From Candidatus Methanomethylicia archaeon (GTDB taxonomy: Archaea > Thermoproteota > Methanomethylicia > Culexarchaeales > Culexarchaeaceae): a stretch of 64,000 bases of DNA. Position 1 is the first letter of the stretch; each line of letters starts with the position of its first letter. The translations under genes were made by a program, and so were the position numbers. The stretch is from the NCBI GenBank assembly GCA_038727515.1, contig JAVYVS010000001.1:602946-666945 (forward strand), given 5' to 3'. Under the pieces are notes generated by a model. It ran no database searches and was not told the origin of the DNA. It saw nothing but the letters and a program-made list of their open reading frames with translations. Of this stretch, positions 14,329-32,092 are shown one piece after another.

Positions 14329-16800
14329 TCAATGTAGAATGGCATTGAATAGAAATTTAAATGTTGCTGGAGTTTGACATCTACTATAAACTGGAAATCC
14401 AAATAAAACGATCTTTCCATAACCCTTAGGAATACAAGCTACGGCAGCAGCATCATAAAGATATTTTTCACCTAAAATCCAACCACTTAAAAGTGGATTC
14501 GTACTCGGATATTTAGCTACCACATACTCTTCTGGACATTTAAAAGCTGGACTATTTATAAACATGATTGCCGAATCAATATCCATACCAAAACCTATTG
14601 GATGCTTATTATTCACTATGACCCTCAAAATGGACCCTGGAATATAAAATTCCGTTGGTTTTAGATTCTCAAGTACATTTACAACTGGAATCCACATACG
14701 TTTAATGGGAAGCTCACAGCTCTCATCAATTGTTATAAGTTTACCACCATTCAAAACAAATTCATTTAAATTTTCAACACCCACATCACCAATACCACCA
14801 GCATATTCTGGAGGAACCTCTTCAACACTCCTACCATTAACAATATTATTGAGATTTTGACCAGCAATTATTATAACATCAAATCTAGAATTTAAATTGC
14901 CATTTCTAATTTCATTATTCCCAATACTCATATATGGTATATTAAACATTTCGAATAGAAACCTAGCCCAACCTTCATCAGCATTTGGAATCCAATTCCT
15001 ATATAAACCGATTCTAGGAATTTTGAGACTTATCATATTTACATTTGTTAAATTATCACAAGCATATAGTACCACTGGAAGACCTTTTAGGAAGCTGGGA
15101 AGTTTCTCCTTCAATTTATCATCATTTTCAAATACAAAAGCTCCTGGTGGAAGTTTAACATTAGAAATACTAATTTCATTGGGAATTCTATAAACTTTAA
15201 AATTGTTTAATAGAAGATTAATGGCAAGTTTATATGAAGCATTAGACTCTGGTGAAGCCAGTAGATATTTTGCATTTCTATCGCCAATTATAATTCCATC
15301 TGGATATTTAATCTCCTTTAACTCAACGCTTTTAACATTAAATTTACCATTAACTGTATAAACTTTAACATTCATCATTAATGGAAGTGTCCAAGCAGTT
15401 AAATCATATGGTCTTTTAGGCGGTTGTTCTGGGGATTCTCTTAAATCTGGGTATACTTGTACTTCCAGTAATGTTTTTGCATATCTACCATAAGGTTGAG
15501 CAAAATATATTATGAAGGATCCCTTTGGAAATTCTATTCCATCAGCAATGAAAGATTCTTCAGCCACGTTGATTTTAACCAATCCACGATGTAAAATATC
15601 TAAAAGCCAGTACAAATTATATAAATCCTTTTGATTTGGAGGGATTATAAAGGCGAATGGCCCCCCTTCAGGTTTTAAAGCACGTTTAAATATTTCTATG
15701 GTATTTGCAATCCAAAATCTCCTATACTTAGCAGCATTTCTAAGACATGCAATAACAGCGGCAAGTTCATAATCAATAATGTCTCTTAACCTCCAAATAC
15801 CACCACGCCATGGATATGGATTATTCCATCTTTGTTTAGATGGATCTAAACCAATAACAGGTCTTAAATCTTGAGGCTTTATTTCAATGGGAGTAGCAAT
15901 TTTAACGCTTGCAGCTTCAGAAAGTATTCTTATACCACCATGATAATGCTGATAAGCTCTAGCAGGCGTCCAAGCATCGTATATAGCATAGCAAGCTACA
16001 CCCTTAAATCCTCTACCAATAAGTTCATTAGCCATTGAAGAACCCATAAATACTATTTCTTGTTGAAGTATGGGATCTACATTAGGATCTATTGGGTCAA
16101 GATATGGTGGAAGCCAAAGTCTAGGTCCATATGGACCCATCTGATGTAAATCATATACTATTTGTGGATGCCAACGATTATGAACTTTTTCAACGACAAG
16201 TCTAGTTTCAATTAGATTCAACATAAACCAATCTCTATTATTATCATGACCAGCATATTTATGGTAAAGCCATGGTGGAGCTGAACCTTCATATTTAGTA
16301 CCTAAAGTCTTATTATACCAATTTACAACCATTACATGACCATCTGGATTAAGTGATGGAATTAAGAGTAATATTACATTATCGAGGATTTCTTTAAATT
16401 CATCAGAATCTTCTGTTGCAAGTTTATAGAGAAGTTCTATACTCATCTGTGATGCAGCAATCTCGGTGGAATGAATACTACAAGTAACAAGTACAATTGT
16501 TTTACCTTCATCTATAAGTTTTGAAATTTCATTTTCACTAAGACCTTCAGGATTATGAAGCTTTTCCTGTATACTCCTATAATAATCCAATTTCTTCAAA
16601 TTTTCAGATGAAGAAATTATAGCTAGAATCATATCATTGCCTTCAGTGGTTTTACCCAAGAATTCCACTATAACTCTATCTGAGCGTTCTCCAACAATTT
16701 TAAAATACTCTAAAATTTGATTCCAGTTGGCAAGTTTCCTATCTTCTCCAACTTTAAAACCAAGAAATTCTTCAGGGGATGGAATACCCTTTAAACCCAT
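14329..16800 (-). CDS. M14 family zinc carboxypeptidase-like protein (cytosolic, large)
   Basis: M14 motifs HSTEIAAS (HxxE), SLNPDGH, NNRDW; the annotated ORF start at 16878 overlaps tRNA-Gln; trimmed to the internal ATG (MGLKGIPSPEEF) at 16800. Confidence 0.6.
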   Translation of the reverse strand: MGLKGIPSPEEFLGFKVGEDRKLANWNQILEYFKIVGERSDRVIVEFLGKTTEGNDMILAIISSSENLKKLDYYRSIQEKLHNPEGLSENEISKLIDEGKTIVLVTCSIHSTEIAASQMSIELLYKLATEDSDEFKEILDNVILLLIPSLNPDGHVMVVNWYNKTLGTKYEGSAPPWLYHKYAGHDNNRDWFMLNLIETRLVVEKVHNRWHPQIVYDLHQMGPYGPRLWLPPYLDPIDPNVDPILQQEIVFMGSSMANELIGRGFKGVACYAIYDAWTPARAYQHYHGGIRILSEAASVKIATPIEIKPQDLRPVIGLDPSKQRWNNPYPWRGGIWRLRDIIDYELAAVIACLRNAAKYRRFWIANTIEIFKRALKPEGGPFAFIIPPNQKDLYNLYWLLDILHRGLVKINVAEESFIADGIEFPKGSFIIYFAQPYGRYAKTLLEVQVYPDLRESPEQPPKRPYDLTAWTLPLMMNVKVYTVNGKFNVKSVELKEIKYPDGIIIGDRNAKYLLASPESNASYKLAINLLLNNFKVYRIPNEISISNVKLPPGAFVFENDDKLKEKLPSFLKGLPVVLYACDNLTNVNMISLKIPRIGLYRNWIPNADEGWARFLFEMFNIPYMSIGNNEIRNGNLNSRFDVIIIAGQNLNNIVNGRSVEEVPPEYAGGIGDVGVENLNEFVLNGGKLITIDESCELPIKRMWIPVVNVLENLKPTEFYIPGSILRVIVNNKHPIGFGMDIDSAIMFINSPAFKCPEEYVVAKYPSTNPLLSGWILGEKYLYDAAAVACIPKGYGKIVLFGFPVYSRCQTPATFKFLFNAILH

Positions 16801-16836
16801 GAAATTAACTATGTATAGAACATTGTTTAAATTTAT

Positions 16837-16912
16837 TGGTAGCCGGGGGGAGATTCGAACTCCCGTCGACGGGGCCAAAGCCCGCCATGCTTGGCCGCTA
16901 CACCACCCGGCT
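16837..16912 (-). tRNA. tRNA-Gln (anticodon UUG), CCA encoded
   Basis: Reverse complement reads AGCCGGGTGGTGTAGCGGCCAAGCATGGCGGGCTTTGGCCCCGTCGACGGGAGTTCGAATCTCCCCCCGGCTACCA: 7-bp acceptor stem AGCCGGG/CCCGGCT, T-arm GGGAG-TTCGAAT-CTCCC, anticodon stem GCGGG/CCCGT with loop CTTTGGC (U33, anticodon TTG, G37); resembles crenarchaeal tRNA-Gln. Confidence 0.85.
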
Positions 16913-24681: not shown

Positions 24682-25041
24682 ATGAGTGGGAAAAAGGAGA
24701 AAATACCCTTTAGGGTTAAAATGGCTGATGGAAGTATAGAAACAGTATATGCATATTCAGAGAAGCAAGCATTATTCCTAGCATCAAAAAGTGGGAAGAA
24801 GGCGTTGGAAGTTGTAGGAATACTTATGAAGACTGAAGAAAAACCTATTGAAAAAGAAAGAGTTAATGAAAAAAAGATTGAATTATTTGAAAAACTTGAA
24901 GAAGCTTTAAAGAATAAAAGATACATAGAGGCTATAGAATATAAAATACAAATTCAAAAAATGATATCTAATGGAGAAATAAATTGGAATAATGAATTAG
25001 AGAAGAAGTATGGATTATTTGGATTATGGTGTAATAAATGA
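24682..25041 (+). CDS. hypothetical protein (small, Lys/Glu-rich)
   Basis: 119 aa ORF with no recognisable motif; 4-nt overlap with downstream M14 gene. Confidence 0.3.
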   Translation: MSGKKEKIPFRVKMADGSIETVYAYSEKQALFLASKSGKKALEVVGILMKTEEKPIEKERVNEKKIELFEKLEEALKNKRYIEAIEYKIQIQKMISNGEINWNNELEKKYGLFGLWCNK

Positions 25042-26600
25042 TTAAAAGGATTTACCCATACTTCATCACAATAGTGATCTTAACTCAATTTATCCAATTA
25101 ACCCCAATCCTTTCACATACTACCATTGAAAAATTAGAATCTATGGATGTTAGAAGTGGAATATACACGTTGTATGAGCTAAGTGATGGAAGAATCTTAA
25201 ATGTAACATATAATTCATTGAATAAGTACACTAAAACACCATTAATAAATGTAACAATAGATATTTGTGGAAGAACATTATGGGCTATATATAATCTAAC
25301 CAATAGAATGCGAATTTATGGAGAATTATGGAATTGGGAGGTATACCCTCTATGGATACCAAAAATCATTAAAGAAAACGATAAAATACAGTTGTATGAT
25401 CACAGGGTATTCAATGTTATAGGAACAAATGAAACTAGTATAATATTATCAAATAATGAAACGAAACTTATCTATGATGGTTTTAGTGGAGTTTTATTGG
25501 AGGGAGAGATAGAGATATTCAATGAAACATTAAATGCTAAAATGATAAAAACAAATATGAAGTTTAGAAGAGAATACTTTAACAACGTATATTTCGATTG
25601 GAAAACTTTAACAATAAAACTTATGAAATTAGAAAGCAAGTATAAAGATATTCTAAAGATTTATAGTATTGGTAAAAGCCTACTTGGTAGAGAAATATGG
25701 GCTTGTGAAATTACTGGAATTGGAAAAGAGGAAGGAGTTATATTAATTGATGGAGGAATGCATGGAAGTGAAGTTATAGGAGTTAGAGTAGCATATAAAC
25801 TTTTAGAAACAATTTTAGAAGAATACAATGAATTAGTTGGTAAAGGTTTACTTAGAAATCTCAGCATAATAATAATACCAATGTTAAATCCAGATGGTGT
25901 AGAAATGTCAAAATATTCACCACCAATACCAATTATACACATAAAGGATGGTAGATGTAATGCTAATGGTGTAGATTTAAATAGGAATTTTGGGTACTCA
26001 TGGACTCTTGGAGGTTCACCATACTATAATTCAACAACATATAGAGGTGAAGAACCTGAAAGTGAACCAGAGGTAAAAGCTTTAAAAAACATATTATTAA
26101 AGCGTAACATATTGTTTTATTTGAATTTACACTCAGGGGTAAAGCAAATACTAATACCAGCATATCAAGAAAATCCATATCTAAATGTGTATATGGAAAT
26201 AGCCTCAACACTTTCAAATATATATGGGTATGAAATAGCTAGAGGAGGAATATATGGAGGATCTGCAAACTGGTGTCTGATGGGTAGAGATAAACCAGCA
26301 TTATCAATAATAATAGAACTTTACGGTGGAGGAACAAGAACTCTAGAAGTAGATTGGTTTCTATTTTACAATCCAGTAGACATAAGTGAAATAAGTAAAA
26401 TTGAAATATTAAGTTATCAAGCTTTCATACAGATACTATTAAACGTGAATAAATGGAGTAGAGGAATCATAAGAGGAGAAATAGAATCATCAAGTCAACA
26501 AATACTAATAATAGTAATAATATCAATAGCGATCATACTAACTATAATATCATCATATATAATGTCAAGAAGTAAAATTAAGAAGAAAATTAGAAACTAA
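25038..26600 (+). CDS. membrane-anchored M14 family zinc carboxypeptidase
   Basis: 520 aa; N-terminal hydrophobic signal/anchor, M14 motifs GGMHGSEV (HxxE), MLNPDGV, GVDLNRNF; C-terminal TM helix plus basic tail. Confidence 0.7.
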   Translation: MIKRIYPYFITIVILTQFIQLTPILSHTTIEKLESMDVRSGIYTLYELSDGRILNVTYNSLNKYTKTPLINVTIDICGRTLWAIYNLTNRMRIYGELWNWEVYPLWIPKIIKENDKIQLYDHRVFNVIGTNETSIILSNNETKLIYDGFSGVLLEGEIEIFNETLNAKMIKTNMKFRREYFNNVYFDWKTLTIKLMKLESKYKDILKIYSIGKSLLGREIWACEITGIGKEEGVILIDGGMHGSEVIGVRVAYKLLETILEEYNELVGKGLLRNLSIIIIPMLNPDGVEMSKYSPPIPIIHIKDGRCNANGVDLNRNFGYSWTLGGSPYYNSTTYRGEEPESEPEVKALKNILLKRNILFYLNLHSGVKQILIPAYQENPYLNVYMEIASTLSNIYGYEIARGGIYGGSANWCLMGRDKPALSIIIELYGGGTRTLEVDWFLFYNPVDISEISKIEILSYQAFIQILLNVNKWSRGIIRGEIESSSQQILIIVIISIAIILTIISSYIMSRSKIKKKIRN

Positions 26601-27405
26601 TAAACACTAATGAAATAATTAATCCAGTTAATCCACCAATTAGTGTAGAAGTAAAATTGACAATATGGTTATTTATAAAGCTAAATCCTTTAACAAGTCT
26701 AGCTCTACATCCACAAAGTATATGTATAGGATCCTCTGAGAACATATTACATTTATCACACCAATATCCAGCTTGAAAAATTGCACCGATAAAACTATCA
26801 ATAGTAGACCCAATAAAACCAGATACAACAGAAATACAGAGGATTTGAACTAATGAAAATTCAGGTGCAACATTAAACATAAAAGCAGCAAACCCCATTA
26901 ATAAAGATGAGAAGAATATTGCGAATTCACCATATGGAGATATAGCTCCAGAAACACCAGGTTCAACCTTCCTTAAATTTGTTATTAACCTAGGCTTACC
27001 AGGATATAGTAAACCAATTTCAGTAGCTAGAGTATCTGAGAAAGCAGTAGAAATAGCGCCTAGGAAAGCTGCAAAAAAGATGCCGCCACCAAAAGTTCCT
27101 TCACCCAATGCAAATAATGCTGCTACACCACCATTACCAACAACATTCCTCCAAGATCTAGATCCCCCTCTAGCTTCAGCAAAACCCAAACTCCTTTTAA
27201 AATCATATTTATACTTAGTGAATAAACTGGATGCCACATAAAACAGTAGTAATAATGCAAACCACTTAAACCCACCAAAAAGAATAACAATAAAACCAAT
27301 AATAAAAGCAGAAAAAGTTCCAGATAAATCTAGAAATCGAAATTTTATTGAGATTATCGATAAAAAGAGTAGAATGCATAATCCAAGTAGTAATTCCATA
27401 CTCAA
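26590..27405 (-). CDS. DUF92/TMEM19-family integral membrane protein
   Basis: 271 aa polytopic; conserved block AEARGGSRSWRNVVGNGGVAALFA reminiscent of DUF92 family. Confidence 0.45.
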   Translation of the reverse strand: MSMELLLGLCILLFLSIISIKFRFLDLSGTFSAFIIGFIVILFGGFKWFALLLLFYVASSLFTKYKYDFKRSLGFAEARGGSRSWRNVVGNGGVAALFALGEGTFGGGIFFAAFLGAISTAFSDTLATEIGLLYPGKPRLITNLRKVEPGVSGAISPYGEFAIFFSSLLMGFAAFMFNVAPEFSLVQILCISVVSGFIGSTIDSFIGAIFQAGYWCDKCNMFSEDPIHILCGCRARLVKGFSFINNHIVNFTSTLIGGLTGLIISLVFISF

Positions 27406-27492: not shown

Positions 27493-28842
27493 TTGAAAAT
27501 TTATAAAGCTTTAACAATAGCTGGATCAGATTCCAGTGGAGGTGCTGGAATACAAGCAGATCTAAAGACTTTCTCAGCATTCCAAGTTTATGGTATGACA
27601 GTAATAACAGCTTTAACAGCTCAAAATACCATGACCGTTAAAGGAATACATCCAATACCACCAGAATTCATAAAATTACAATTTGAAGCAGTAGTTGAAG
27701 ATATAGGTGTAGATGCAGCTAAAACTGGAATGTTATATAGTGAAGAAATAATAGATATCGTAGCTGAAGAAATAAGCATTAGAAAGATCCCTTTAATTGT
27801 AGATCCAGTTATGATTGCAAAATCAAAAGCAAAACTATTGAAGGATGAAGCTATAAAAGCATTAAAGGAGAAATTAATACCCATAGCAAAAATAGTAACC
27901 CCCAATATACCTGAAGCAGAAGAAATGGTAAAACACAAAATAAAGGGTTTAGAAGATATGAAAAGGGCAGCCATAGATATAAAGTCTATGGGAGTTGAAG
28001 CAGTAATAATTAAAGGTGGACATCTAGAAGGAGGGAAGGTAATAGACCTACTATATTATGACGATTTATTCTATGAAAATGAGAAAAGGAGGATTGAAAC
28101 TAAAAATACCCATGGAACTGGATGCGTATTTTCAGCAGCATTAACAGCATTAATAGCTAGAAAAGTAAGTATACCTGAAGCCTTTAGAATTGCAAGTGAA
28201 TTTATGGATAAATCAATAATTGAAGGCTTAAATATTGGTAGAGGTTATGGTCCAGTAAATCCAATGGCTAAATTATATGAAGAAGCAAATAGGTATAACG
28301 CATGGATAAATGTTTTAAAAGCATTAGAGAAAATTGAAGAAACAAAAGAATTAGCAGAATTAATACCTGAAGTTAGAATGAATATCGGTGAAGCAATACC
28401 AAACGCAAAAAGCATTAAAGATGTATGTGCAATAGATGGTAGAATAACAGTGGTCAATGGTTTTCCAAGAGCAAATGGACAAGTGAAATTCGGAGCATCA
28501 AAACATATAGCAAATGTAATACTATCAGCAATGGAGATTGATCCAAACATGAGAGCAGCTATGAACATAAAGTATAGTGAAGAGATATTGGAAGCTTGTA
28601 GAAGAGCAGGATTCAAAATAGCTGAATTCAAAAGAAAGGAAGAACCATTGGAAATAAAGTTAATTGAAGGAGGAACATTGAAATGGGGTGTGAAAAAGGC
28701 AATAGAGGATTTAGGAGAAACACCAGATGTAATATATGATTTAGGAGAAATTGGGAAAGAAGCTATGATAAGGATAATTGGCATAAATGCAGAAGATGTT
28801 GTAAATAAAGCCACAAAAATAATAAAAAAATTGAGAATTTAA
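27493..28842 (+). CDS. thiDN: bifunctional ThiD (HMP/HMP-P kinase) + ThiN (archaeal thiamine-phosphate synthase), ThiDN
   Basis: 449 aa; N-terminal ThiD signature LTIAGSDSSGGAGIQADLKTF; about 180-aa C-terminal extension typical of archaeal ThiN domain. Confidence 0.8.
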   Translation: MKIYKALTIAGSDSSGGAGIQADLKTFSAFQVYGMTVITALTAQNTMTVKGIHPIPPEFIKLQFEAVVEDIGVDAAKTGMLYSEEIIDIVAEEISIRKIPLIVDPVMIAKSKAKLLKDEAIKALKEKLIPIAKIVTPNIPEAEEMVKHKIKGLEDMKRAAIDIKSMGVEAVIIKGGHLEGGKVIDLLYYDDLFYENEKRRIETKNTHGTGCVFSAALTALIARKVSIPEAFRIASEFMDKSIIEGLNIGRGYGPVNPMAKLYEEANRYNAWINVLKALEKIEETKELAELIPEVRMNIGEAIPNAKSIKDVCAIDGRITVVNGFPRANGQVKFGASKHIANVILSAMEIDPNMRAAMNIKYSEEILEACRRAGFKIAEFKRKEEPLEIKLIEGGTLKWGVKKAIEDLGETPDVIYDLGEIGKEAMIRIIGINAEDVVNKATKIIKKLRI

Positions 28843-28844
28843 GT

Positions 28845-29492
28845 TTATGTTGGTATCCTAAGCCATTCAAATAGTAGGAATTGCAATCGCCCAACGAATA
28901 AATCAATTCTACTCAGAACGGTATTGGCAAAGGCATATCCGAATGCTAACATCATTAAAGTTTTACCAAGCCTTGGAATAAAGGCTAAAGACCCTGTATG
29001 CAATCTTGGAAATGTGAATATGAAGTAGTAAAGTGCTGTTATCAATGAGACCCATAAGAGGACTTTTCCAATAATATCAAAAATAGTTCCAGTACGGAAA
29101 TCAAGTGAAGCTGTAGCAACAATTTGTGCAATAAAATCAGCTTCAATAGATCTAACAAATGCCGCTGTAACACTTGTACCCACAACTATGGCAATACCAT
29201 ACCTAAAGATCCAATATAATGTACGATGATATCTAAAGTACATCGTTACACCAATAATCAATGGTACGATATACCATGGATCTTTAAGTGTTGGATATAG
29301 GTAATCTATACCGTAAGTCTTGATATTTCTAAGCGCTGCAACAAAAGTATAACCTATAGCAGCACCAACATAAGTGTGTTCAGCAAATTTGAAAACCGGA
29401 TTATCCCTATATGCAATTGAAATACATGCAATTGTAAGAAATGCAGCAACCCATAAGCCAATTTCAGTTATAATATCCACCATAACATTCAC
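28845..29492 (-). CDS. hypothetical polytopic membrane protein (operon member 5)
   Basis: 215 aa, 5-6 predicted TM helices; 4-nt overlap with upstream gene; no recognised family. Confidence 0.35.
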   Translation of the reverse strand: MNVMVDIITEIGLWVAAFLTIACISIAYRDNPVFKFAEHTYVGAAIGYTFVAALRNIKTYGIDYLYPTLKDPWYIVPLIIGVTMYFRYHRTLYWIFRYGIAIVVGTSVTAAFVRSIEADFIAQIVATASLDFRTGTIFDIIGKVLLWVSLITALYYFIFTFPRLHTGSLAFIPRLGKTLMMLAFGYAFANTVLSRIDLFVGRLQFLLFEWLRIPT

Positions 29493-30325
29493 CCTCCTTT
29501 ACGCATACGTTTAGCTAAATGTGCAATATTACCGAGGATTATAAACACTAATATCACCAAATGAGCTCCACTAAATGCATCGGCCTTCTTAATGCCACTA
29601 CTAGGTTTACCTATTAGAAATTCATATTCACCACCAGGTGCAGAACCCACTAAAGCTGTTATCTGTTTAGCCTCGTAATATGGCCTCATGGTGGGTAACA
29701 TCATATCTAAAACGCAACACAAGTACTTAACTTCAGGGCGCATGGTAACCCATTGCCTAATCCAACCAATGGATGTCTCACCAGCAGATGTAAAACATAT
29801 AACCATATAAAAGTCTCTTATGTTGTTTATATTTGCAGCCATTGGAATTTGAGATAATGGTGTACCTTTATAATCAGATGGAACAGCAGCTTTAAAATCA
29901 TCAGCTAAAGCTTTCATAGCAGTTTCACCACCAGCAATATACCCTATATGGAAGTAATCAACACCATACGTCTTACCGTAAATTTTAGGATCAACTTTAG
30001 ACATAAGCATATCATAAACTATAAGTCCAGTAGCATCAATGGAGAAGAATACTAATTTAACTGGCTTACTAAACAGATGATGTAAAGTGGCTACTTGCAT
30101 AGATTCAAAAGCTGGAAATGAACCAAGACTACAATGTGAAACTAGGATATAACTACCTGGAGGTATTGCTTCAATAGCATTATACCACTCCATAACTGGA
30201 GCTGAAACTGGTACTGGTAAACCCAATGGACGTAACAATGGAATAATCATAGCTATTAAGACAATAGTATATAAAACTTCTCTAGGAACTTCTTCAAGAA
30301 TATCTATAAAAGATTTACCAGCCAT
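29489..30325 (-). CDS. hypothetical membrane-anchored protein (operon member 4)
   Basis: 278 aa; N- and C-terminal hydrophobic helices flanking a soluble domain; no recognised family. Confidence 0.35.
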   Translation of the reverse strand: MAGKSFIDILEEVPREVLYTIVLIAMIIPLLRPLGLPVPVSAPVMEWYNAIEAIPPGSYILVSHCSLGSFPAFESMQVATLHHLFSKPVKLVFFSIDATGLIVYDMLMSKVDPKIYGKTYGVDYFHIGYIAGGETAMKALADDFKAAVPSDYKGTPLSQIPMAANINNIRDFYMVICFTSAGETSIGWIRQWVTMRPEVKYLCCVLDMMLPTMRPYYEAKQITALVGSAPGGEYEFLIGKPSSGIKKADAFSGAHLVILVFIILGNIAHLAKRMRKGG

Positions 30326-30327
30326 AT

Positions 30328-31008
30328 TTAATCCCTCCTACCCATATATCCAGTTTCAGTACCAATCAAAGTTCTTATACCAAGAAGAATAGCTCCTAAT
30401 GCAGCACTCATTTGAATAGCTCTATAAGCACCTATACTTGGATAGTTTGCAAACCATGAAATGAAATCACGAGACCATGGAGCATAAACTTGAAATATTG
30501 GTGCAGCAGCCATCAATGATAGGAAGCCTACAATCAACAATAGGGTTGTCTCAAGGTTTCTAGCTCTAAAAACTCTATAGCATCCAGATGCCATATAGAA
30601 TATTAATGATGCATACATGGTTGCATCCAATGGATTTAAAACATATAATGTAAGCCACTCCCAATTTTTCGCTAAGGGAGTATACCATAAACCTGAGTGG
30701 CCAAAGGATCCTACAATTAAGAAAACAACCATAACAAAGAGTAGCCATGCACTGCAAAATCTATCAAAAGCACTTTTAGCCCTCATAATCCTCCTACTGT
30801 GAATAATTGTTACGTTTACTAAACCAAAGCCTACTATGAAATTCGCAAGTAAATTAGCCCAATTTGTCAATGTAACACCATAATATTGTATAGCATATTC
30901 ATGGGGTTGAGTAATCTTCGCTGGAACTAAGAAATATTGTAAAATCATTACTAAACCACATATGAATGTTATTGCTAGAGGTATATGCCTCCTATAAAAT
31001 ATAGACAT
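30328..31008 (-). CDS. hypothetical polytopic membrane protein (operon member 3)
   Basis: 226 aa, about 6 TM helices; 2-nt gap to next gene. Confidence 0.35.
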   Translation of the reverse strand: MSIFYRRHIPLAITFICGLVMILQYFLVPAKITQPHEYAIQYYGVTLTNWANLLANFIVGFGLVNVTIIHSRRIMRAKSAFDRFCSAWLLFVMVVFLIVGSFGHSGLWYTPLAKNWEWLTLYVLNPLDATMYASLIFYMASGCYRVFRARNLETTLLLIVGFLSLMAAAPIFQVYAPWSRDFISWFANYPSIGAYRAIQMSAALGAILLGIRTLIGTETGYMGRRD

Positions 31009-31017
31009 ACAATCACC

Positions 31018-31323
31018 TCACAATTTAAGAAAATCAATAATACCCTTATAACCAGTAAATGTTAGGGTTAATGCACCAACTATACTCAATGCTAAGGCAA
31101 ATAGTTTTGCTAGATCTTGTATAAAAATACTTGACATAGCAGATGGCTCCTTACTTAGATATGCACCTGCAGCAAACATTTCATCACCAATAATAACATA
31201 ATCACAAACCACAGCAAAGAAGGGTATCTGATATACCCTAGCGGTACCAGCAACTTGTATTGAGCCAACCCTATAGAATGTTTCAGCAAACATCATTGAT
31301 TCAGCCCAGAATGGTCCAACCAT
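31018..31323 (-). CDS. hypothetical membrane protein (operon member 2; possibly C-terminal part of interrupted gene)
   Basis: 101 aa; in the same reading frame as 31384..31833, separated only by one TAA (31381..31383) and 20 sense codons. Confidence 0.3.
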   Translation of the reverse strand: MVGPFWAESMMFAETFYRVGSIQVAGTARVYQIPFFAVVCDYVIIGDEMFAAGAYLSKEPSAMSSIFIQDLAKLFALALSIVGALTLTFTGYKGIIDFLKL

Positions 31324-31383
31324 AACATTAGCTGCAGGTCTTTCTCTTTCAGCAATGCCTTGAACAGCTGCTGCAAATGCAAA

Positions 31384-31833
31384 TTAACTACCAGATAAAT
31401 ATCTTATATCATGCTCAGGTTTTGCACGATCCAATTTACCCTCACTTGTATAAGCCTGTTTATATAGTTCTGTAGCAACACCAAGAACAGTGGGGTCGCC
31501 AACGCTGCATATAATCTCTACATCGTATTTAGCGCATAATCTTGCAAGTTCAGCGAAAACAGCTAAACCTGCAACCACCTGTGGAGAAGTAGCTCCCGTT
31601 AAACCAGCATATCCGGGAGTAAAATGCACTGGTTTACCCATTTCAGCAGCTCTACCCACAGCTTCCTCTAAAGCTTCTAATCCAGCAATCTTCCTCCATT
31701 TTAAAGTCCATCCACGCTTTAAAGCATTCATAACAAGAATTGCTCCAACCCACATGAGTATAAGCAATGCTAAATCTAGATATCTACCAGCAACTATCTG
31801 TTCAACATTTAGAATTGCACCAGCAGAATTCAA
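31384..31833 (-). CDS. hypothetical membrane protein (operon member 1; possibly N-terminal part of interrupted gene)
   Basis: 149 aa; TM helix then motif FTPGYAGLTGATSPQVVAGLAVFAEL; locally higher GC than surroundings. Confidence 0.3.
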   Translation of the reverse strand: MNSAGAILNVEQIVAGRYLDLALLILMWVGAILVMNALKRGWTLKWRKIAGLEALEEAVGRAAEMGKPVHFTPGYAGLTGATSPQVVAGLAVFAELARLCAKYDVEIICSVGDPTVLGVATELYKQAYTSEGKLDRAKPEHDIRYLSGS

Positions 31834-32092
31834 AATTTTCCCTCCAAAATTGAGTATTGTAAAATTTTTGGTAACTCAAATAAAATTTTGAAGTTTGTGG
31901 TATATAAGGTTATTGGAGTTAAATGGTATGCAATGATAAAATTTATTTTGTCATTCGTTAAAAAGTAGTGTTGATGGGATGATTGAGCTCGAAAGGTATG
32001 ACCTTAATGGAATGATTAACCCATGCTAAATGACCGTAAAAATTATTTTAATGCATAGAATATAGGTTAAAGGTTGTTTATGGTGATATCTT

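Follow-up and report, generated by a model that had tools for sequence, protein, structure and literature searches.

A conserved four-gene cassette of membrane proteins in a Candidatus Methanomethylicia archaeon, with its DUF6754 gene interrupted by a stop codon

We analysed a minus-strand locus in 64,000 nucleotides (nt) of DNA from a Candidatus Methanomethylicia archaeon (assembly GCA_038727515.1, contig JAVYVS010000001.1, positions 602,946 to 666,945). This whole stretch is called the window below, and coordinates count from its first letter. The locus, which belongs to a Culexarchaeia-type archaeon, is a four-gene operon, g1-g2-g3-g4, whose genes are tightly packed or overlapping. As an invariant cassette, the same four genes recur in many anaerobic archaea and bacteria. 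In the window, a single stop codon interrupts g1, which encodes a DUF6754 domain. The best explanation overall, which we regard as evenly poised between right and wrong, is that this four-gene cassette encodes a heteromeric membrane complex with a role in translocation or processing, and that its g1 is interrupted here.

The original prediction had described five minus-strand open reading frames (ORFs) of 149, 101, 226, 278 and 215 amino acids (aa). All five appear in the ORF listing at the coordinates that had been reported, and their tight spacing is real, with junctions that consist of a 4-nt overlap and gaps of 2, 9 and 60 nt. Strongly hydrophobic segments occur in every one of the five, in agreement with the claim that they encode membrane proteins. 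The cluster is also convergent with thiDN (27493-28842), as had been noted; the stop of thiDN lies 2 nt from the end of g4, the last ORF. The number of genes had to be revised from five to four, since a single gene accounts for both the 149-aa and the 101-aa ORF. The features of the locus are as follows.

31018..31833, minus strand: g1, DUF6754 (PF20539), 271 codons including an in-frame TAA at codon 150, with a TTG start at 31833
31384-31833, minus strand: 149-aa ORF of g1, from the ORF listing
31384..31386, minus strand: in-frame TAA that replaces CAA (Gln150), from DNA alignment with two sister contigs
31324..31383, minus strand: twenty sense codons FAFAAAVQGIAERERPAANV, residues 151-170, from the TAA to the next ATG
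31018-31323, minus strand: 101-aa ORF of g1, with an ATG start, from the ORF listing
30328..31008, minus strand: g2, 226 aa, a polytopic membrane protein with about five hydrophobic segments and without a Pfam or NCBIfam model
29489..30325, minus strand: g3, 278 aa, a Rossmann-like domain flanked by an N-terminal and a C-terminal transmembrane (TM) helix, the latter with a basic tail
28845..29492, minus strand: g4, 215 aa, a polytopic membrane protein without a family model

The start of g4 is ambiguous. GTG at 29492 gives the 215-aa protein and the 4-nt overlap with g3, and an alternative ATG at 29483, which is used in sister-genome annotations, gives 212 aa.

The two ORFs of g1 lie in one frame, with nothing between them except a single TAA (31384-31386) and 20 sense codons. 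When 31018-31833 is translated as one stretch, the reading is continuous over 271 codons apart from this TAA. Both pieces match the DUF6754 profile, PF20539, well above its gathering threshold of 27 bits. The 149-aa piece covers profile positions 10-136 of 257 (94.6 bits, E 7e-27), and the 101-aa piece covers positions 161-249 (108.5 bits, E 4e-31). Because these profile positions are consecutive, the two ORFs are the two ends of one domain. The original prediction had drawn attention to a sequence block in each ORF and suggested an internal or inverted repeat, but BLASTP between the two parts gave no alignment even at E<=100. The blocks are different, consecutive parts of a single DUF6754 domain. 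For annotation, this means that the window carries one interrupted gene rather than two small ones.

Intact relatives support this conclusion. The top database match (P0001) is an uninterrupted 271-aa protein that is 99% identical, carries PF20539 and has Gln at the position of the window's stop. Four sister contigs, namely three from assemblies of Ca. Methanomethylicia archaeon (GCA_038845235.1, GCA_038865315.1 and GCA_038879675.1) and one from a Logan assembly of a sequencing run, align without gaps at 99.2-99.6% nucleotide identity, and all encode an intact 271-aa g1. DNA alignment with two of the sister contigs revealed CAA where the window has TAA. The CAA-to-TAA change at Gln150 thus created the 149-aa and 101-aa ORFs. 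All DUF6754 homologues that we examined are uninterrupted single polypeptides, which g1 of the window is not.

The interruption falls in a conserved region. Gln150 is invariant in an alignment of 25 family members, and residues 150-170 hold 13 of the 70 invariant positions of the family, among them E162-R163-E164 (the ERE motif). In the model of an intact orthologue, the missing stretch falls on a helix (150-164) and a strand (168-173). Residues 150-170 cannot come from the product of either ORF.

Either the codon mutated recently to a stop, or the T is a base-call or consensus error. Such an error could have arisen in sequencing or consensus calling, or the assembler could have fixed a minority allele; either way, the operon would be intact and functional, as in the sister strains. 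We see an error as a substantial possibility that nonetheless falls on the less probable side. In its favour, g1 is intact at 271 aa in each of the four independent sister assemblies, with CAA read in the two that were aligned as DNA, and only a single C-to-T transition is needed. Moreover, the downstream part of g1 and g2-g4 have no further decay, and differences are mostly synonymous. The window differs from L001 and L002 by 74-78 substitutions over 12.8 kb and by no indels; 1 is nonsense, 34-37 are synonymous, 24-25 are missense and 15 lie outside listed genes. These ordinary single-nucleotide differences and the lack of indels also count against an error, as they indicate that the window is a distinct strain with an otherwise clean sequence, and substitution errors are rare in consensus assemblies. 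The question concerns the stop codon alone, and an artefact is compatible with the functional model presented below. If the T is genuine, this strain's complex would have no functional g1.

Two other accounts of the stop codon are far less credible. If both ORFs were real genes, giving five in total, g1 would be naturally split into functional 149-aa and 101-aa polypeptides. Both ORFs are open, and the second does start with ATG. However, the other family members that we examined are all single polypeptides, the split deletes residues 150-170 with their 13 invariant positions and the ERE motif, and inspection of the sequence revealed no strong ribosome-binding motif ahead of the second ATG. 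We therefore give a natural split very little credence. Even less probable is a programmed stop, in which the TAA would be read through or recoded as Gln so that full-length g1 is made. The stop falls exactly at the Gln position of all homologues, and the frame stays open after it, with 20 sense codons of conserved sequence. Yet TAA terminates 34 of the 43 long ORFs in the window, the remaining same-frame ORF pairs in the window are ordinary neighbouring genes, and a search of the window for tRNAs gave an ordinary tRNA-Gln(UUG) alone, and no suppressor. Together, these observations make recoding very unlikely, and a fresh C-to-T change of the CAA seen in sister strains accounts for the coincidence of position. 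Genome-wide recoding of TAA was considered as well, and was rejected on TAA usage, the same-frame ORF pairs and the absence of a suppressor tRNA in the window.

The four-gene arrangement is strongly conserved. With each GTDB species represented by one genome, a scan yielded 48 loci that encode DUF6754. Within Culexarchaeia, the g1 product of the window is 78% identical to that of Ca. Culexarchaeum nevadense and 64% identical to that of Culexmicrobium. Identity is about 55% in Bathyarchaeia, about 50% in Kor-like Thermoproteota and about 43% in bacteria of the Eisenbacteria or Krumholzibacteria type. Wherever the flanking sequence is long enough, g1 is followed by homologues of g2, g3 and g4, with order and strand unchanged; the order g1-g2-g3-g4 was found in 43-47 of the 48 genome loci, and the missing cases are at contig ends. 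Six further bacterial contexts (L056-L061), including Ca. Fermentithermobacillus (a Firmicute) and a ‘CPR1’ bacterium, again have g1-g2-g3-g4. The window fits the pattern, with all four families in the same order and strand and junctions of 9 nt, 2 nt and a 4-nt overlap. The original prediction had suggested a synteny search; the cassette is kept in about 60 loci from Culexarchaeia, Bathyarchaeia, Korarchaeia-like organisms, Eisenbacteria, a Firmicute and others. Since the same four genes occur in this order and strand in essentially all of these loci, in two domains of life, the cluster is far beyond chance.

The families are also large. An exhaustive profile search with g1 against 1.84 billion representatives found 2258 relatives (representatives at 50% identity), 963 of them below 1e-30. 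The g2 profile retrieved at least 3829 clusters, all annotated as ‘hypothetical protein’ and none with a Pfam domain. The ‘CPR1’ bacterium has a second g3-like paralogue of 261 aa directly after g4 (L058 12619-13404), which matches g3 of every locus at 1e-28 to 1e-46.

Structure predictions indicate that g1 and g3 share an architecture. The AlphaFold2 model of g3 has a predicted local distance difference test score (pLDDT) of 88.5 and a predicted template modelling score (pTM) of 0.85; for the intact g1 orthologue, the values are 78 and 0.71. In both models, the elements have one order, consisting of an N-terminal TM helix, a six-stranded domain of alternating helices and strands, and a long C-terminal TM helix. 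The models thus agree on a common TM-Rossmann-TM architecture. Their fold matches in the PDB are generic and Rossmann-like only. No sequence relationship was detectable by hhalign between g1 and g3, or between g2 and g4, so the likeness of g1 and g3 is only structural.

The two Rossmann-like domains are predicted to lie on opposite sides of the membrane. Averaged over the g1 family, Lys and Arg number 4.8 in the 15 residues after the first TM helix and 1.6 before it, a distribution that puts the predicted g1 domain in the cytoplasm. For g3, both terminal tails are basic and the domain is acidic, which puts its predicted location outside. Long bacterial homologues give independent support for the inside topology of g1 through their N-terminal extensions. 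Many bacterial DUF6754 proteins are 400-1272 aa long (e.g., P0164, P0179, P0181, P0249, P0273 and P0256). Each of the ten long forms that we examined begins like a signal peptide, and in each a long hydrophilic N-terminal region precedes the first DUF6754 TM helix. This region contains FN3 or PQQ-like propeller domains according to Pfam in three of the ten; the other extensions are unmatched.

Invariant residues of g1 (H70/T72/G74, G173-S179, G196-R199 and C210-D211-Y212) sit where strands reach their C-terminal ends and the next helices begin. In Rossmann-like folds, the C-terminal strand ends are the usual place of the ligand-binding or catalytic crevice. Judged from the model, we infer that this invariant cluster is a putative ligand or catalytic crevice.

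In many loci of other lineages, a second module of four genes directly adjoins the cassette on the same strand, either upstream or downstream. It encodes a soluble ASKHA protein of the GlmL/MutL family (603-614 aa) that covers the whole PF13941 model (E 7e-117), a soluble partner of about 370-390 aa with only a faint barrel-sandwich-hybrid signal, and two small proteins, one of them with two TM segments. The module is adjacent in 5 of the 10 Bathyarchaeia loci with enough flank, in all 4 Kor-like loci and in 4 of 6 other bacterial loci. Its ATPase is 53-65% identical between bacteria and archaea. Module positions are as follows.

L056 3098-6926: module
L059 7052-10604: module
L060 4062-8978: module
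L061 12776-16675: module
L015 7400-10912: module in Bathyarchaeia (example)
L026 11364-15351: module in Bathyarchaeia (example)

In our proposed mechanism, the products of g1-g4 would assemble into one putative heteromeric membrane complex. The g2 and g4 proteins would make up the membrane-embedded core. On the cytoplasmic face, the very highly conserved Rossmann-like domain of g1 may serve as the binding or catalytic module inside, and the structurally similar, less conserved domain of g3 may act as the binding module on the outer face. Where the GlmL-family ASKHA ATPase is adjacent, it could assist or energise the complex together with its partner of about 380 aa and the two small proteins. 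Substrate movement or processing across the membrane is a tentative suggestion for the function of the putative complex, and our confidence in it is low. A broader proposal is that the cassette is the membrane core of an undescribed machine that anaerobic archaea share with several bacterial phyla and that has eight genes in its full form, with mirror-placed Rossmann-like domains on the two membrane faces, the ASKHA ATPase, the partner and the two small proteins; its activity would be unlike known transporter, secretion or respiratory systems. We consider this plausible, at a little under an even chance. Two observations weigh against the proposed mechanism of the complex. We found no homologue of the module anywhere in the 64 kb of the window, nor in the eight Culexarchaeia or the 13 Eisenbacteria loci, so the module is not obligatory or is encoded elsewhere. 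Also, neighbours outside the cassette are functionally incoherent and vary by lineage, with the GlmL module and the small membrane proteins as exceptions.

The cassette could instead be a trans-membrane device for signalling or sensing, in which a variable outside domain (either the N-terminal extension of bacterial g1, or g3) senses and the cytoplasmic DUF6754 domain is the output. The large, variable outside regions led by a signal peptide in many bacterial g1 homologues, some with FN3 or beta-propeller domains, do amount to a receptor-like layout. Moreover, KTN/RCK regulatory domains are among the fold matches, and a histidine kinase, GGDEF or Hpt gene is near some loci. However, no known output domain (kinase, cyclase or DNA-binding) was found in the cassette or consistently beside it, two dedicated polytopic subunits and an ATPase module would be unusual for a sensor, and archaeal g1 proteins, including that of the window, are almost without an outside domain. 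We thus regard a sensor as improbable. We assign a similarly small probability to a membrane-bound enzyme complex for biogenesis of the cell envelope or of lipid-linked glycans, with g1 as a catalytic subunit that binds a nucleotide sugar or phospho-substrate. The hallmarks of GT-B glycosyltransferases, which are two Rossmann-like domains with a cleft and a family profile match, were not found in the cassette.

If the four proteins of the cassette do form a single complex, it is a widespread and unstudied membrane system, given more than 2000 g1 representatives at 50% identity and thousands of g2 clusters. The degree of conservation between bacteria and archaea is unusual, at about 43% identity for g1 and 53-65% for the associated ATPase. 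Bathyarchaeia, Culexarchaeia and Eisenbacteria dominate anoxic sediments and hot springs, and much of their membrane proteome is unannotated. What is known already is limited to g1 as a DUF; g2-g4 are without a Pfam or NCBIfam model, and the literature that we searched contains no description of the operon or of its association with a GlmL-type ATPase. To our knowledge, the only role known elsewhere for this type of ATPase is that of accessory protein to B12 mutases. Defining the g2-g4 families and their linkage to it would provide a concrete target for structural and biochemical work.

We now note properties of the surrounding DNA. Upstream of the operon is one further feature, identified by inspection of the sequence.

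31834..32092, no strand: divergent intergenic region between g1 and the gene for ribosomal protein S25e

This region presumably holds the putative operon promoter, and a GGAGGG motif at 31840-31845 lies 6 nt upstream of the TTG start of g1. Strain differences are denser here than in the flanking genes: 6 of the 74-78 are within about 100 nt (31834-31940), at 31835, 31875, 31908, 31909, 31930 and 31934.

Beyond thiDN, a gene for a DUF92 integral membrane protein occurs in the window and in all Culexarchaeia relatives, and a BacA gene is just upstream of the cassette in Culexmicrobium. These two polyprenyl-related neighbours (window 26590-27405; L004 4890-5687) are not conserved outside the class. 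An M14 peptidase gene is present at 25038-26600 (Peptidase_M14 in the sister-contig annotation). A mechanically called 849-aa ORF (14329-16878) resembles a second protein of the M14-carboxypeptidase type. Its 5′ end overlaps the tRNA-Gln(UUG) gene (16837-16912), so the true start of the gene must be further downstream. Some bacterial cassettes adjoin cell-surface genes (L061 7753-8763; L056 1-2872; L060 15946-18801), which include those for two prepilin-type N_methyl proteins, a cadherin-like protein of more than 3500 aa, and an OmpA-like protein with MoxR and DUF58 genes.

Comparison with known systems leaves the cassette without a close counterpart. The original prediction that no ORF matches a recognisable family was wrong for g1, which Pfam assigns to DUF6754, and right for g2, g3 and g4. 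Its description of the ORFs as uncharacterised stands, as none is clearly assigned to a known transporter or complex family. The hidden Markov model searches that it had called for identified only DUF6754 for g1, and no significant Pfam or NCBIfam match for g2, g3 or g4, either singly or when all 36 alignment members were scanned. These member scans gave only weak, inconsistent matches (e.g., TMD0_ABC and CrgA). Profile searches of PDB sequences with the four families also yielded nothing significant. The PADLOC scan of g1-g4 had no match that would point to anti-phage defence, and the PHROGs scan for phage-derived genes had one insignificant match (E 0.037). The conclusion holds that the cassette fits no recognised transporter or respiratory family, with folds searched for g1 and g3 only.

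Among individual systems, uptake that depends on a binding protein (ABC, TRAP and TTT) differs from the cassette, which is without an ABC ATPase and without DctQ/DctM, TctA/TctB or ECF/CbiMNQ signatures. Pfam and NCBIfam contain no transporter signature for g1-g4 that would correspond to ABC, ECF or CbiMNQ. For TRAP (DctPQM) and TTT (TctABC), there was no match in these databases at E<=1, and the g2 and g4 profiles had no match to PDB sequences. Type I periplasmic-binding proteins are two-lobed, whereas g3 has one lobe that is tethered at both ends. Permease families leave g2 and g4 unmatched, although 19 of the 36 g2 members have weak TMD0_ABC matches, the best at E 5e-5. Mrp antiporters and the Rnf complex likewise found no match among g1-g4 in Pfam or NCBIfam; the sole RnfC_N-like signal is weak (E 3e-3) and occurs in the partner of about 380 aa from other genomes, outside this window.

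The Rossmann-like domains invite comparison with KTN/RCK domains (TrkA/KtrA-type) and other ligand-binding Rossmann-like domains of membrane transport systems, with which they share 5-14% sequence identity and no profile match. Neither the g1 nor the g3 alignment shows an evident conserved GxGxxG nucleotide motif, and the cassette domains differ in having a TM helix anchor at each end. The scores are equalled by those of hundreds of unrelated Rossmann proteins.

Two known families remain to be compared. The g1 of the window is a bona fide member of PF20539, of which it covers model positions 10-249 of 257, and it is 99% identical to proteins that carry the annotation ‘DUF6754 domain-containing protein’. 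PF20539 is a family of unknown function, and its Pfam entry has no record of obligate g2-g3-g4 partners. In the literature searched, we found no paper on DUF6754 or on PF13941. The second comparison is that of the module ATPase with the GlmL/MutL-family ASKHA proteins (PF13941, TIGR01319), which are accessory proteins of B12-dependent glutamate and ornithine mutases. The module ATPase scores about 210 bits against NCBIfam equivalog cut-offs of 475-600 and is 150 aa longer, and it is paired with the uncharacterised protein of about 380 aa rather than with mutase subunits.

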